Source of the DNA: Escherichia phage Sa157lw | DNA length: 64,000 nucleotides | Direction: 5' to 3' (one strand) | Sequence record: OK322699.1 | In this document: positions 57,252 to 61,289 of the stretch, piece by piece | Layout of the letters: every line of letters begins with the position of its first letter | Numbering within the stretch: position 1 is the first letter of the stretch | The notes under the pieces: model-generated | Databases searched by the model: none | Told to the model about the DNA's origin: nothing | Seen by the model: only the letters and a program-made list of their open reading frames with translations | Made by a program: the position numbers and the translations under genes

Positions 57252-57285
57252 AGACAAAAAGAAGCCCGATCGTCCTGATCGGGCT
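57252..57285 (-). terminator. rho-independent terminator downstream of tRNA cluster
   Basis: AGCCCGAT-loop-ATCGGGCT hairpin followed by U-run on minus strand. Confidence 0.5.
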
Positions 57286-57508
57286 ATGTTAAACCATCGT
57301 GGGGATGGAAAGACTACTCACAGCAATTTCTGATAATGGGCGTTGGGAGAGTGCGTCGGGAATCGAACCCGAAATCGTCAGGACGCTGAAAGCTATTTGC
57401 ATTTCACTTGCATATCCTGCGACTTTCTTAACTTCCTTAACCCCAGATTGTTATGAAGTCAGCATGCACACCTTCTTCATCTTCAGGAAGTCACACTCAT
57501 TATTCTGA

Positions 57509-57594
57509 TTGCTTCAACTGGATTCGAACCAGTGACCTCAGGCACCTTGTTCTCTCGAAACTTTCCTGCGCTCTACCACTCGAGCTATGAAGCA
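57509..57594 (-). ncRNA. tRNA-like RNA with aberrant anticodon domain
   Basis: Acceptor TGCTTCA/TGAAGCA, D-arm GCTC-GAGTGGTA-GAGC, T-arm ACTGG-TTCGAAT-CCAGT, but no 5-bp anticodon stem in the 36-nt central segment. Confidence 0.3.
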
Positions 57595-57597
57595 ATT

Positions 57598-57686
57598 TGG
57601 CGGAAGGTGAAGGATTCGAACCTTCGGGGGCTAAAAGCCCCACTCGATTAGCAGTCGAGTCCCTTAAACCTCTCGGGCAACCTTCC
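57598..57686 (-). tRNA. tRNA-Ser (anticodon GCU), type II
   Basis: Hand-folded cloverleaf: acceptor GGAAGGT/ACCTTCC, anticodon arm CTCGA-CTGCTAA-TCGAG, 17-nt variable arm, T-arm GAAGG-TTCGAAT-CCTTC, encoded CCA. Confidence 0.8.
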
Positions 57687-57690
57687 AATT

Positions 57691-57774
57691 TGGAGCGGGA
57701 GAACAGGATTCGAACCTGTCCAGTGATCGTCGCCGATGATCAGTCGGCTACTGGCCAACCCCTATGGCTCCCGC
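57691..57774 (-). tRNA. tRNA-like gene, possibly tRNA-Ile (GAU), non-canonical
   Basis: Acceptor GCGGGAG/CTCCCGC, T-arm ACAGG-TTCGAAT-CCTGT, anticodon arm GCCGA-CTGATCA-TCGGC; irregular D-arm and one extra nt before the acceptor. Confidence 0.4.
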
Positions 57775-58249
57775 GAAATTTGGACGGGCTTCACACCCGA
57801 TTGAGCATTTGATCTGCCGTAGCCCAACTCCCCGCGCTTCACAGCGCCGATTGGTTAACTGGCGACCAGTGCCTTCTGGTTCGATCTCCTGGAACTTTAC
57901 AGGCTTCGCGCCCGACCATTTCTGGAAGTTGGGGCATCGTTTCCGATGTGGAGTCACCCCATTTTATACACAGCTGGCTGCAACGCTTACTGTGTTTGGT
58001 CTACCGCTACGTGCTGGGCCACGCTCGAGGACATCGGCCATCCTTCCTCAGCTAATCCACGCAGCGGCAGATTTGTATCAGAGTGTCCGGTGTAGCTTTC
58101 CGTGAGGTGCGCACTACTGTAGCCTCTACACTCTGAAATTGTTTGAAGTAGGTCTCACTCCCCTGGGTATCTGTATCCTGCAGCCTTACATTGGCAGCTA
58201 TCGCGCGATTCGCACTTCCGAAGGCGCTTCGAGATACTCTACTTCAATT

Positions 58250-58325
58250 TGGCGACGATGGCAGGACTTGAACCTGCGACATACGATTTAACAGACCGCC
58301 GTTCTACCGACTGAACTACATCGTC
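58250..58325 (-). tRNA. tRNA-Asn (anticodon GUU)
   Basis: 76-nt cloverleaf: acceptor GACGATG/CATCGTC, D-arm GTTC-AGTCGGTA-GAAC, anticodon loop CTGTTAA, T-arm GCAGG-TTCAAGT-CCTGC, encoded CCA. Confidence 0.8.
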
Positions 58326-58326
58326 A

Positions 58327-58551
58327 TTATCCGTGCTTGTTTGCTTCAATTGCCCTTAATTGGGCATCAGCGTCAGCTTTGGTGTCATGTGTCCCAAGAA
58401 CCTTCGTCTTGGTGTGGTCAAGGACAACCCACTTGTCGCCTCGCTTTTCAACAAACTCAACAATCTCTTTGTTGTCAGTAGAGAGGCCATCCCACTCAGC
58501 AAGAAACTCACCGAACGTTTTCATCATACTCACCAATCGTTTATTGAACAA
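58327..58551 (-). CDS. small hypothetical protein inside tRNA island
   Basis: 74-aa ORF with protein-like composition between tRNA-Met and tRNA-Asn. Confidence 0.4.
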   Translation of the reverse strand: MFNKRLVSMMKTFGEFLAEWDGLSTDNKEIVEFVEKRGDKWVVLDHTKTKVLGTHDTKADADAQLRAIEANKHG

Positions 58552-58644
58552 CTGGTTTATTTAGGTGCTCCCGAGGCGGTATTTTAATCCCGCGATCCCA
58601 TCTCGCCTGTCGTAGACCGGAGCATGCTGACAGTCCAACATATT

Positions 58645-58720
58645 TGGTGACCCTGGCTGGACTTGAACCAGCGACCAATCGATTATGAGTCGACTGCTCT
58701 AACCACTGAGCTACGGGGCC
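58645..58720 (-). tRNA. tRNA-Met (anticodon CAU)
   Basis: 76-nt cloverleaf: D-arm GCTC-AGTGGTTA-GAGC, anticodon arm GTCGA-CTCATAA-TCGAT, T-arm GCTGG-TTCAAGT-CCAGC, encoded CCA; one C-A mismatch in acceptor stem. Confidence 0.7.
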
Positions 58721-61289
58721 AAAATTGGCGGGGTCTGAGGCTTTTCACCTCACCTGCTGGATTGGCCTCCAGCTGTTCTCTCTGGGGACTCGCTGTCCGG
58801 ACAGCTATCCCTTAAACTATCGCCCCTTAATTCATATTGCTGTGGGTAATACCAAAGCGGAGGTTTGGAATCTCTCGCCCTATAGCGACCTTTAAACCGT
58901 TTGATCAGTCCGATCCAAAGGACTACCCACAGCAATATGAATTTGTTGTGTCCAATCAAGGACTGTCAACCTTTTATCCCGTTTGTGCATGATCAGTTCA
59001 TGCAGGCCTCTTTGTGCGCCTCACAGCAACGCGCTTCTGTAGGTCATTGACTTGCACCGTAGTCTCACCACAGGCGTTTATTTTTCCAGGGCTTTCCACT
59101 TACAAGTCTTAACCAGATCGGGATACGGGCTTGTAAGATCAGATTGGACACAACTTTGATGGCTCTAGGACTAAAGATCCCGCGTCACCCATAGACTTGG
59201 TTTATAAAATCTAGAGCCATCAAAGTTGCAACCAATGTCGCAACTCGCACTTCAGCGTCTTCGTCTCGCTTCAGCACTTGTCCTCTACGCTCGGACCAAA
59301 CGAGGCTGGCCGACAGAAACATGACACCACTCATCACTAGAGCGAGGATGTGGTTGATAGCCACGATGTTACATCTCTGTCGCAGAGTGATCACACTTGT
59401 CAGGATGATCACTGTTTTGCGAACTTGAAAATACTGCGCCTGTCTCGGGTTTCCCCTTAGTTCGGCCTCTCATTGTTCGTCTAGTCAGGGAGCTACCCTT
59501 GATGACCAGCTTATTTTGAGATCTTCGCCAGCACCCACTAGTGTCTAGAATATGTAGGTGTCGAGGTCTGCAAGGCATTGCCCTATTTCATACAACGCTC
59601 TCTCAAGTACGCAAATCGAAGTTCTCTGGGCTTAACAGGTTCGACCCAACATGTTGTATATCGCCTAACTTGCTCATGGGACGGACACATCTGTGTACAG
59701 ACCTTGAGGGTTAAAAGATATACCCAAAGAACTTCGATTTGCGTTGTGGGGGCAAACCCCCACACGGCTACTTCTTTGACAGGGATTGCTAGCCCTGGGG
59801 ATTCCACTGTTTAAGGCTTTATCCCATAACGCCTGAGGCGCGTTTTAACTTATTGAGCTTGCATAACTGCAAACTGATGCGCTGTGAGACACATCTTTGA
59901 GGGCACTCAGTGTACAACAGGCTCCGATATTTCATAGGGCATTACTGCCTCGGATTTAAGTTGCCTTTCTCCTGAAACTCCATGCAGTCTCGCGTCTGAC
60001 GCGGAATGCCCTCAAAGATGTGGAGCCGTTTTAGGGAGTCGAACCCAAATGCTTGGCCAGCGCTGACCTTACATCCCATCTGACTTAGGCAACCCACCTC
60101 TGCTTACTCAGGAGCTTATCCCCTTTGGACAGTCAGATATAACGGCTTTGGGATTGGAGGAAGGACTCGAACCTTCTCATGTACGCTCCTGATTTCTCAG
60201 AAGTAGCCTGCTCCCATCGACCTATTAAGTACACGCTCCGCTCATTGTTCGGCGGGAGCTTATTAATCACACCCTCCCGCCTATTGTTAGTGCGCCGAAT
60301 TTTGTTATGAGGAATCGGAAGACCTCACTGGTGTATGGCTATTAAGCTACTGCCAGGAACGTGTTATCATTAGCGATTATTTTTGTGGTCAGTTTCTAAA
60401 AACCCGCAAAGTCACGCACAACGAAAACGAAAACCTGTTTGAGTCCTAAACCTACCTGTCTTGGTCTCACATCGCTATGAGTGGCCAGGACTCAAACAGC
60501 TTGCCGTTCAGTGAGTTAACTATACTTTGTAACCCGTTATTGATAAAACCTTTTATTTTTGTTGACGAGGGTGTGGAATCGAACCACACTTCTGAGCGCT
60601 GCCCCGTGTCACCAATGCACCACCTCACCATCGATTTGCCGGAACTTACGCATCCGGCCTCGCCTGTTGGTGATCCTTCGAATCCGGGAAGATTAGTAGG
60701 AACTATGAATCAAGTTAATTCGACCAACAGGAATCCTCGTGTTGCCCTTTGACGCAACATTATGAACCCTCTATGAAGACTCATAATGTTGTCGGCGTGA
60801 TGGAGATTAGCGCCCCCGACCTCCCCTTATATGTTGGTGTCGACTTGCCAACGGGGTGCTCTCATTCTTCTGAGCTAATCACGCTACAACAGGGAGTTTC
60901 GTTCTCCGACGGTCAAGTGCGTCCACTGACACCAGCGAGGTGGATGTGACGCCTCTATTCACACAAGCCCCAGAGACTAGGGGTTCACTGTTTTCGGTTT
61001 CAAGCCTACTCACACTGTGCTGTTTCCCTCATGTTTGATACTTTACTGCAAGCCAGCCAATTTGAAAAATCCTCTCCCCTTTGAATTACACTGCCCACAG
61101 CAGTGCGGACGAACCTTCATTCAAAACCGGATGCGCCGAAATGGGCGACTGTGTACCGGACTGATCAGGTCGACCCAGGAGAGAGCAGGTAATCCCGATC
61201 AGGAGGATGAGGAGTAACATCATGTAAAACATAGTGTTCCCTCCCTTCCATGCAACTAACTTTACCGCATTTATTTATTGAATAAAGCG

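Follow-up and report, generated by a model that had tools for sequence, protein, structure and literature searches.

In this work, we analysed 64,000 nucleotides of Escherichia phage Sa157lw (sequence record OK322699.1; this whole stretch is called the window below), a Kuttervirus (Ackermannviridae, ViI/Cba120-like), and focused on an island of about four kilobases, positions 57,252 to 61,289, that is poor in open reading frames (ORFs) and holds tRNA genes, tRNA-shaped units and long hairpins, with all of its RNA features on the minus strand (Table 1). Our main result is a predicted RNA, at approximately 60512-60250 of the minus strand, that has its own promoter and a template like that of transfer-messenger RNA (tmRNA, encoded by ssrA) and has no tRNA-like domain of the tmRNA type; ahead of the template it carries an arm that is predicted to be antisense to host tmRNA. 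A preliminary description of the island, made from the letters of the DNA, had missed both the tag template and the antisense arm at 60250-60512.

The template consists of a linker, a resume codon and a short tag frame that encodes ANDNTFLAVA. Ten codons and a stop are kept in 132/132 family members, with TAA, TAG and TGA all in use as the stop, and the 34 distinct versions of the tag have entropies of 0.62, 0.43 and 1.01 at codon positions 1, 2 and 3. Residues 1-3 are always A-N-[D/E] and position 9 is A or V among these versions, while the last residue is Ala in 33 of the 34, encoded by GCC, GCU or GCG. Upstream of the frame, U(-5), A(-4) and A(-3) are invariant across the 62 cluster representatives of alignment A1, in which the resume codon is GCN. 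U(-5) and A(-4) correspond to U85 and A86 of E. coli tmRNA, where the choice of reading frame depends on U85 and most of all on A86 (PMC2481249). The tag frame is preceded by ...CAAAAAUAAUC here and by ...CAAAAAAUAGUC in E. coli tmRNA, where the tag is ANDENYALAA. At the level of sequence, the comparison demonstrates coding-type constraint on the tag frame and on its frame-setting bases. We rejected an upstream ORF running into the tag, and an alternative AUG frame, given an in-frame UAG in most members and stops in the other frames; the Kuttervirus copy contains no AUG for an alternative frame.

The predicted structure around the tag is well conserved in pairing. A helix-5-like stem (CUGG 60356-60353 with CCAG 60331-60328) is followed by a hairpin (60327-60323 with 60312-60308) and by a pseudoknot (CCGA 60318-60315 with UCGG 60298-60295). 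Over alignment A1, 96.3% of the cells of these three elements are paired and 12 of the 13 pairs show compensatory changes, a level of pairing that none of 500 shuffles matched and that compares with 35-51% in slid controls. The hairpin stem occurs as GUGAGG/CCUCAU, GCAAGG/CCUUGU and ACGGGG/CCCCGU, and the pseudoknot as CCGA/UCGG, GUCG/CGAC and CCAA/UUGG. Further downstream, the pairing of hairpin C is kept through at least 15 stem sequences across the family. At the other end of the RNA, the 5' hairpin is local in all families and its stems covary (CTGTTTGAGTCC/GGACTCAAACAG here, CAATGAGTACA/TGTACTCATTG in locus L110), the stem in most members being GGTAAGRGCAT/GTGCTCTTTCC. A P2-like closure, which would give a domain-swapped tmRNA fold, was considered and rejected: the 5' strand always pairs better locally, often with no downstream partner. 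Many copies begin at their own promoter right before the core. A TTGTCA/TATAGT arrangement lies upstream of the RNA in loci L097 and L122 and in Erwinia phage Bue1, and a sigma-70-like promoter with TTGACA and another -10 hexamer in phages ZCKP8, swi2 and FO1a.

Between the 5' hairpin and the linker lies the arm predicted to pair with host tmRNA, its target in ssrA comprising the 3' strand of pseudoknot PK1, A86, the -1 triplet, the resume codon and codons 2-5. The invariant pre-template block, (UA)GUUUUCGU...GCGAC-UUUGCGG-N-UUUUUA, is collinear with and antiparallel to host tmRNA: in the predicted duplex, 60428-60418 pairs with ssrA 104-94 (codons 2-5), 60415-60411 with 91-87 (resume codon and -1 triplet), 60410 with A86, 60409-60404 with 80-75 (the PK1 3' strand) and 60402-60397 with 73-68. 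The energy of this duplex (29 pairs, -37.1 kcal/mol) and those that follow come from windowed or arm-restricted runs, unrestricted RNAduplex runs of the whole RNA against ssrA having given meaningless giant duplexes. For 3,965 random 42-mers of the window the mean was -10.8 (standard deviation 3.7, best -27.8), which places the arm at z -7.1. Among 72 distinct members, the arm and host ssrA gave a mean of -34.9 kcal/mol; shuffled arms reached -13.8 on average, and pairing of the arm with the homologous region downstream in the RNA itself -16.4. Host ssrA was a better partner than that downstream region in all 72 (median z -7.1). Within the arm, it is the conserved blocks that pair: a stretch of variable length (2-14 nt) faces an internal loop opposite ssrA 92-96, and the single variable base after GCGG faces G74, a C at this base in one member giving a perfect 14-nt match to ssrA 68-81. 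The variant GCGAUUA pairs with ssrA 85-91, U85 included. By blastn the tmRNA-like RNA has no detectable similarity to host ssrA. Complementarity to ssrA that is this extended, conserved and beyond the effect of composition would mark the RNA as a trans-acting antisense RNA, and the target is presumably the one covered by the classic anti-ssrA oligonucleotide.

In spite of these likenesses to tmRNA, no tmRNA was reported by ARAGORN, tmRNA-only mode included, in the window and 135 related loci. Rfam tmRNA families match the region repeatedly and below threshold, RF00023 with 10-13 bits and RF04321 with 20.6-31.2 bits, against a gathering threshold of 47 bits and a score of 295.8 bits for E. coli ssrA. 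Of the features of RF00023, the mRNA-like domain (U85/A86, resume codon, short tag ORF and stop) is present, as are helix 5 and the downstream pseudoknot PK2; a standard tmRNA was rejected on its acceptor domain and on the 47-bit threshold. A two-piece or permuted tmRNA (RF04321), which would have an upstream acceptor piece with a CCA end and a coding piece opening with the 5' acceptor strand, was also rejected, since the upstream unit U2 contains both acceptor strands and no CCA and the coding RNA starts with a promoter and a hairpin. Scans near the template for a hidden Ala-type domain (T-arm, 7-bp acceptor, G3:U70, A73) gave only phage FO1a and chance matches. The FO1a unit (L004 2326-2404) has the acceptor CGGGGCG/CGCCUCG with G3:U70, A73 and CCA, reaches 31.7 bits with the Rfam tRNA model and lies approximately 150 nt past the tag, just before an HNH gene; no family member other than FO1a was seen to have a plausible alanine acceptor. 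We likewise rejected a helper protein encoded nearby, SmpB-like or otherwise, the neighbours being tail and baseplate genes and proteins annotated without a function. Cronobacter phage ESP2949-1, with a complete genome of 49 kb, has the RNA and has no tRNA gene and no credible T-arm anywhere, which indicates that the tmRNA-like RNA does not need a phage tRNA-like domain. In L122 a plain hairpin stands in place of unit G. On these comparisons, the tRNA-like modules beside the RNA are variable and dispensable.

In sensitive BLAST searches, the template segment of approximately 150 nt was the only non-tRNA part of the island common to many unrelated phage groups; a shorter segment, 58083-58143, is also present in one N4-like phage. 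The template RNA occurs in at least 637 phage records, and the carriers include Felix O1-like phages, 7-11, N4-like phages (PGN829.1), T1-like and other siphoviruses (ESP2949-1, ZCKP8, swi2), Erwinia phage Bue1 and P1. A degenerate pattern found it in at least 120 IMG/VR contigs, and a strict pattern in 5 of 185,579 bacterial species representatives, namely Enterobacterales prophages and two metagenome-assembled genomes. Among complete E. coli genomes 756 of 5,426 have the RNA, mostly on plasmids of approximately 95 kb that are P1-like phage-plasmids; about 650 of the matches in these genomes belong to such phage-plasmids. In P1 itself (L144, NC_005856, about 68893-69110; also L143), the same RNA, with the tag ANDDLMMVAA, belongs to the ban operon, which is repressed by C1; it follows the annotated 'dicF-like region' with that region's terminator hairpin and precedes trnA and trnT. 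The P1 record leaves the RNA itself without annotation, giving just upstream of it only the 'dicF-like region'. Our literature searches turned up no account of RNAs of the tmRNA-like or anti-tmRNA kind in these phages. In the tmRNA database papers, the phage tmRNAs are limited to those of mycobacteriophages, Bacillus phage G and comparable genes that ARAGORN or BLAST can detect (79 unique bacteriophage sequences in 2025), and a genome paper on a ViI-like phage reports tRNAs only. The RNA family is one that ARAGORN and Rfam annotation miss.

Table 1. Features of the island, those of the tmRNA-like RNA first; positions refer to the window
Feature	Position	Strand	Basis
Sigma-70-like promoter, TTATCA, 16 nt, TATAGT	60519..60546	-	consensus scan; putative function
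5' hairpin module, abuts GUUUUCG block	60426..60508	-	inverted repeat I7; z -5.2
Arm predicted antisense to host tmRNA, 29 predicted bp with E. coli ssrA nt 68-104	60397..60428	-	RNAduplex -37.1 kcal/mol
Single-stranded linker GAAACUGACCACAAAAAUAAUC, with U(-5) A(-4) A(-3) at 60379-60377	60375..60396	-	alignment A1
Tag frame GCU AAU GAU AAC ACG UUC CUG GCA GUA GCU UAA = ANDNTFLAVA*	60342..60374	-	sequence
Helix-5-like stem, hairpin, pseudoknot	60295..60356	-	alignment A1 pair counts
Hairpin C, conserved loop GGUGUGAUUAAUAA (family loop UGUGAUUAAUAA)	60251..60281	-	stem covariation
Small membrane-protein gene, 48 aa	61086..61232	-	phrog_8415, E 1e-31; orf219 in Cba120
tRNA-like unit U1, acceptor GCGUGAU/AUCACGC, D-arm, 34-nt arm replacing anticodon arm, atypical T-loop	60794..60884	-	sequence
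tRNA-like unit U2, acceptor GGCGAGG/CCUCGUC, T-arm GUGUGG-UUCGAUU-CCACAC, A73, no CCA	60563..60664	-	fold
Unit G, tRNA-like three-way junction	60149..60239	-	sequence, fold
Unit H, tRNA-like four-way junction	60021..60146	-	cloverleaf-like minimum free energy fold
Long hairpin M1	59890..60022	-	inverted repeat I4; z -6.2
Long hairpin M2	59609..59744	-	inverted repeat I3; z -7.7
Hairpin M3 (59143-59236), then helix GUUGUGUCCAAUC...GAUUGGACACAAC (59154-58945)	58945..59236	-	inverted repeats I1, I16
Long hairpin M4	58829..58943	-	inverted repeat I6, 20/20 complementary; z -7.2
tRNA-Met(CAU), encoded CCA	58645-58720	-	ARAGORN; Rfam 68.4 bits
Small protein gene, 65 aa	58327..58524	-	phrog_3684, E 1e-25; CDS in relatives' annotation
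tRNA-Asn(GUU), encoded CCA	58250-58325	-	ARAGORN; Rfam 72.5 bits
Highly conserved non-coding stretch, further hairpins	57775..58249	-	89-93% identity to Taipeivirus
tRNA-like RNA, ARAGORN 'Ile(gat)', 84 nt	57691-57774	-	ARAGORN; Rfam tRNA-Sec model 23 bits; fold
tRNA-Ser(GCU), encoded CCA	57598-57686	-	ARAGORN; Rfam 56 bits
tRNA-shaped RNA without CCA	57509-57594	-	Rfam tRNA 48.7 bits (E-value mode)
tRNA-like RNA of about 150 nt, acceptor GAGUGUG/CGCACUC, T-arm UCGGG-UUCGAUU-CCCGA, end ...UCCCAA	57343..57497	-	sequence; fold z -2.7
Intrinsic terminator, island end	57263..57285	-	9-bp stem then T-run

The island in which this RNA lies is matched in 368 phage records, with identities of 98% to Salmonella phage Hercules and 97.5% to E. 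coli phage ECML-4. The preliminary description had named a lack of stable transcripts and of conservation in related phages as the outcome that would speak against further RNAs here; on conservation, we found instead 70-98% identity over most of the island across genera, to Taipeivirus KWBSE43-6 and to Klebsiella phage RCIP0012 (both Ackermannviridae), with the order of modules partly rearranged. Its suggestion of additional structured RNAs beside the tRNA genes, as in T4, is borne out by this conservation of the ORF-poor stretches, together with stable hairpins (z -5 to -7.7) and compensatory changes. We conclude from cross-genus conservation, very stable hairpins and compensatory changes that the island is under selection as RNA, as far as comparison of sequences can tell. 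It is best explained as a minus-strand stable-RNA operon that runs from the promoter at about 60546-60519 to the terminator at 57285-57263, with further units upstream to 61289, and that would contain three canonical tRNAs, five very stable long hairpins, one tmRNA-derived RNA and no fewer than seven non-canonical tRNA-shaped units that retain just an acceptor stem and a T-arm; we give this reading, including our interpretation of the tmRNA-derived RNA, a probability of roughly 0.55.

The three minus-strand tRNAs with encoded CCA seen from the letters of the island are supported alike by ARAGORN, by Rfam (56-72 bits, gathering threshold) and by their sequence, and only these three combine a cloverleaf and a 7-nt anticodon loop with at least 29 bits for RF00005. 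Their number in the preliminary description held for clean tRNAs, to which ARAGORN adds an 'Ile(gat)' at 57691-57774 and Rfam in E-value mode adds 57509-57594. The six extra T-arm motifs that it listed are all in place. They are among nine exact matches to GGTTCRANTCC in the 64-kb window (at 57359, 57520, 57612, 57706, 58264, 58659, 60035, 60163 and 60575), all on the minus strand between 57359 and 60585, with none elsewhere. Allowing one mismatch raises the count to 12, not significantly above the 7.9 that chance would give; the non-chance feature of these motifs is their clustering on one strand within 3.2 kb. The T-arm units other than 57509-57594 and 57691-57774 gave no tRNA detection by Rfam or ARAGORN.

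The tRNA-shaped units differ widely in build. The unit at 57691-57774 has a Gly-type acceptor end (GCGGGAG/CUCCCGC, U73, CCA) and no anticodon arm; it carries the full acceptor identity set of E. coli tRNA-Gly (G1-C72, C2-G71, G3-C70, U73, CCA) and could be a chargeable minihelix-like RNA. A similar unit, GCGGGUA/UGCCCGC-U-CCA, is found in phage 7-11 (L005). In 57509-57594, a 30-nt hairpin (CAGGAAAGUUUCGAGAGAACAAGGUGCCUG) stands for the anticodon arm, with 22 nt instead of a 7-nt loop and its closing pair. This hairpin is portable: its consensus, CAGGARAGYUUCGNRAGAACAAGGUGCCUG, places a GNRA tetraloop above an asymmetric internal loop, and 16 copies occur among the fetched loci (for example L006, L029 and L123), siphoviruses and prophages having it inside the 3'-terminal GUGGUGAAUG...CACCAC hairpin of the tmRNA-like RNA. 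The larger unit at 57343-57497 has a counterpart in the unrelated IMG/VR contig L033, with the inner sequence GUGAAAUGCAAAUAGC and the 3' end ...CACUCUCCCA; L033 also holds a tmRNA-like RNA. Upstream of the tmRNA-like RNA, the acceptor of U2 shows three compensatory pairs relative to Taipeivirus TGCGGTG/CACCGCA, and U1 is partly conserved in Erwinia phage Bue1. Downstream of it, unit G consists of a GGAG/CUCC closing helix, a helix CGUGUAC/GUACAUG and a T-arm GAAGG-UUCGAGU-CCUUC, and ends in ...CUCCAAU-C-CCA; it has no G3:U70, and covaries with its Taipeivirus counterpart in the inner helix (CAGGUGC/GCAC(C)CUG) and the T-stem (GGAGG/CCUCC). Unit H combines an acceptor GCCGUU/AACGGC with two long arms, a weak T-arm and U73-CCA, and is 98% identical in L122 and found in L097 too.

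In five long hairpins the minimum free energy lies far below that of shuffled sequences (z -5.2 to -7.7), and the four of them that were compared with relatives have 2-4 compensatory pair changes each. M2 has four compensatory pairs relative to Taipeivirus and Klebsiella phages and M3 (z -7.0) also has four, while M4 keeps 44 pairs relative to Taipeivirus, four of them compensatory and none broken. The stem base of M1, CACAUCU/AGAUGUG, is kept in Taipeivirus, where the top is swapped for an insert with a T-arm. The pairing GUUGUG...CACAAC, as found with M3, also forms the base of the terminal hairpin that the tmRNA-like family has in other phages. A small cassette, YCCCUKAUGGGGCUUGGCUUAAAUGCA, turns up repeatedly as an insert in long-stem modules with differing stems (for example in L008, L029, L034, L068 and FO1a), with stems GAGCAUU/GAGUGCUC in MK54 and AAAGGGUA/UACCCUUU in FO1a. 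The modules look like conserved stems with exchangeable inserts. The best-conserved non-tRNA part of the island is 57758-58251 (89-93% identity to Taipeivirus); the motif AGAGUGUAG...ACACUCU at 58083-58143 lies in this stretch, in which no ORF of 57775-58249 has a PHROG match. A form of this motif, AGAGUGUAGAGGCUACAGUAGUGCGCACCUCACGGAAAGCUACACCGGACACUCU, is common to the N4-like Salmonella phage FSL SP-058 (L007), with a part in a P1-like contig (L034). Rfam gave no match at E <= 10 to the RF00028 group I intron (P3-P8 core) in 56500-62000, and none at E <= 10 or at the gathering threshold to GOLLD, ROOL or the YrlA Y RNA.

As an account of an ORF-poor island with canonical and degenerate tRNA-like genes, the preliminary description was right about the tRNAs and T-arm motifs and only partly right in finding no convincing ORF: the gene at 61086-61232, within the stretch 60700-61260 that it took to have none, matches phrog_8415, and the region is indeed ORF-poor, eight further candidate ORFs of the island having no PHROG match. 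The 65-aa gene at 58327-58524 sits between tRNA-Met and tRNA-Asn. An ORF at 59185-59412 (minus strand) matches phrog_23307 (59 aa) and overlaps hairpin M3; because it is not kept as an ORF in Taipeivirus, where a 2-nt indel and an in-frame TGA interrupt it, phrog_23307 may have been built from ORFs over-predicted in the RNA region. HNH homing-endonuclease genes sit at differing points of the RNA region in relatives (L002, L003, L004; hits H102 and H111), and the region is a hotspot for their insertion. An HNH gene adjoins tRNA-Met in Cba120, SS9 and SeKF_64, HNH genes flank the tmRNA-like RNA on both sides in FO1a, and one lies under the match to the tmRNA-like RNA in Se-G and HMGUkp5.

How might the tmRNA-like RNA act? 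The interpretation that we include in the probability given above is that it is a natural RNA against tmRNA, one that may replace the host tag with its own. It would have three parts: the 5' hairpin, the arm antisense to ssrA 68-104, and a full tmRNA-type template made up of an A-rich linker with U(-5)/A(-4), a resume codon, ANDNTFLAVA, a stop, helix 5, the pseudoknot and a further hairpin. During infection the arm would anneal in vivo to host tmRNA, breaking host PK1 and masking A86, the resume codon and the first codons in the manner of synthetic anti-ssrA oligonucleotides, and this masking would block the host tag. In vitro, trans-translation is suppressed by oligonucleotides complementary to tmRNA, which are routinely used for this purpose (PMC3384345). 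On a minimal reading, the phage produces a natural RNA directed against tmRNA. Our preference, at moderate confidence, is that the RNA in addition presents a template of its own to the host tRNA-like domain and SmpB, because its tag frame and frame-setting bases are constrained as coding sequence and because no phage tRNA-like domain is required. The host's Ala-tRNA-like domain with SmpB may thus resume on the phage template and add the phage tag, which would be possible because the template emerges from the duplex on the side of host PK1/P2; from there the phage resume codon is 22 nt away, and the host's own lies 11 nt from PK1. More tentatively, we propose a complete template swap in a hybrid 'two-piece' tmRNA, to which the host would give the Ala-charged tRNA-like domain and SmpB and the phage the linker, resume codon and tag. 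Elsewhere in the island, acceptor/T-arm units and long hairpins may be processing punctuation for RNase P, RNase Z/BN and RNase III that frees individual RNAs, and some of them may be charged or serve as decoys; the rest of the island is best seen, by analogy, as tRNAs, processing punctuation and further stable RNAs, similar in kind to the RNAs of the T4 tRNA cluster.

Several points weigh against this interpretation. Transcription, RNA ends and annealing are predictions, the processing role of the tRNA-like units and hairpins is proposed by analogy, and the covariation listing and RNAalifold gave nothing convincing for PK1. The target in all duplex runs was E. coli ssrA, and the Salmonella tag, which we take to be ANDETYALAA, would bring one mismatch to the arm. 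A U-rich arm and an A-rich target inflate duplex energies, although controls of the same composition still leave the arm at z of about -7, and, the family members being related, 72/72 does not stand for 72 independent events. The helicase activity of the ribosome could also be enough to open the duplex on host tmRNA, which measures about 11+6+6+6 bp. We know of no precedent for a ribosome resuming on a template tethered in trans.

The main rival is a pure inhibitor, an antisense or decoy RNA that masks the tmRNA template and perhaps titrates SmpB, S1 or RNase R, its tag frame never being translated. It would account for the complementarity to ssrA 68-104 and for a family core that has no tRNA-like domain, and it has parallels in the inhibition of tmRNA by antisense oligonucleotides in vitro and in the tRNA-like-domain-only tmRNA of phage DS6A, which is reported to inhibit tmRNA (PMC4131195). 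We nonetheless find it doubtful, since it leaves unexplained why ten sense codons and a stop persist in all 132 members with all three stops in use, why variation is concentrated at third codon positions, why the tag has ssrA-like ends (AN[DE]... [AV]A), and why the frame-setting U(-5)/A(-4) are invariant. A self-contained phage tmRNA, in which unit G (60239-60149) or unit H would be an aminoacylatable domain in cis and the gene would have a new topology, its template lying 5' of the tRNA-like domain, could draw on the tRNA-like module that follows the template in many members, on the Ala-type unit of FO1a about 150 nt after the tag, and on the CCA end and conserved structure of unit G. Such a domain in cis is unlikely: unit G lacks G3:U70 and has C73 as discriminator, no Ala-type unit is consistent across the family, and ESP2949-1 and L043 have no downstream tRNA-like module, L122 having a hairpin for unit G. 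RNase P removes a 5' extension on an acceptor stem, and an acceptor so extended would be unfit for the peptidyl-transferase centre, which also counts against a self-contained tmRNA.

The preliminary description had offered decayed tRNA genes as an alternative. A broader form of that idea, in which decaying tRNA genes, a captured remnant of host ssrA, or junk and scars of mobile elements (homing-endonuclease traffic) make up a functionless region, fits the HNH genes inserted in the region in Cba120, SS9, Se-G and FO1a and the module content that varies between related phages. The conservation of 70-98% across genera with compensatory changes already largely refutes it, and decayed tRNA genes in particular are contradicted by this conservation together with the stable hairpins and the covarying acceptor and T-arm stems. 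A template RNA that has its own promoters, is common to unrelated phage families, both lytic and temperate, and has no blastn-detectable similarity to host ssrA leaves this explanation very improbable.

Compared with known systems, the RNA resembles tmRNA (RF00023) and two-piece or permuted tmRNA (RF04321, RF01849-51) in its A-rich upstream sequence with U(-5)/A(-4), its GCN resume codon, its tag of ten codons with AN[DE] at the start and a hydrophobic residue, A/V and A at the end, a stop codon within or close to a helix-5-like stem, a pseudoknot further downstream and tRNA genes nearby. Unlike tmRNA, its ends form no acceptor/T-arm domain, it has no G3:U70, P2 closing helix or clear PK1, it is far below Rfam thresholds and ARAGORN-negative, it carries an arm against host tmRNA, and it is encoded by a phage rather than a cell. 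Synthetic anti-ssrA oligonucleotides, used in ribosome display and cell-free translation, are likewise complementary to the resume region and first codons, and their target is covered by the phage arm (...UAGUUUUCGUC..GUU.GCGACU...); the phage RNA differs in being natural, in reaching the PK1 3' strand and in being fused to a replacement template and structured domains. As a phage-encoded tmRNA derivative it is comparable to the phage tmRNAs of the mycobacteriophage Bxz1 group and Bacillus phage G and to DS6A, in which a partial tmRNA kept by the phage can inhibit host tmRNA (PMC4131195, PMC11915505). Those RNAs are complete or consist of the tRNA-like domain only and are detectable by ARAGORN or BLAST, whereas the RNA described here is the converse, a template only with an antisense arm.

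The surrounding island is like T4 species 1 and 2 (rnaC, rnaD), plant mitochondrial t-elements and mascRNA, which by description are stable non-tRNA RNAs or acceptor/T-arm mimics co-transcribed with tRNAs and presumably cut out by tRNA-processing enzymes; its units, again compared by description, are larger and more varied, and several lack CCA. The T4 species are defined as stable RNAs of 120-140 nt with a tRNA-like 3' end, excised from the tRNA precursor. With GOLLD, ROOL and the YrlA Y RNAs it has in common a multi-domain structured region of several hundred nucleotides in a phage, beside tRNAs and with tRNA-like parts embedded. It differs from these in an architecture that is modular and variable rather than a single conserved fold, and in the missing Rfam match at E <= 10.

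Altogether, if our interpretation is correct, an RNA directed at the main ribosome-rescue system of the host has been overlooked in many well-studied enterobacterial phages, among them P1, Felix O1, the ViI/Cba120 group, 7-11, N4-like and T1-like phages, and also in the P1-like phage-plasmids found in about one-eighth of complete E. coli genomes; its family, of hundreds of members, is missed by ARAGORN and Rfam annotation. The RNA would then be the first antisense RNA against tmRNA known from nature, and possibly also the first case in which a tag template is provided in trans, and such RNAs would provide natural reagents for switching or re-coding ssrA tagging. If the template is indeed swapped, rescued proteins would gain (A)ANDNTFLAVA, or other tags in other phages, rather than (A)ANDENYALAA, and their fate would be altered because endings such as ...LAVA, VAA and MAA differ from the ClpX-optimal ...LAA; the same trick would operate in P1, Felix O1, ViI-like, N4-like and T1-like phages. 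The RNA would thereby offer an easily tested explanation for old observations of phage growth interacting with ssrA, and would account for part of the 'useless' tRNA regions that these phages carry.

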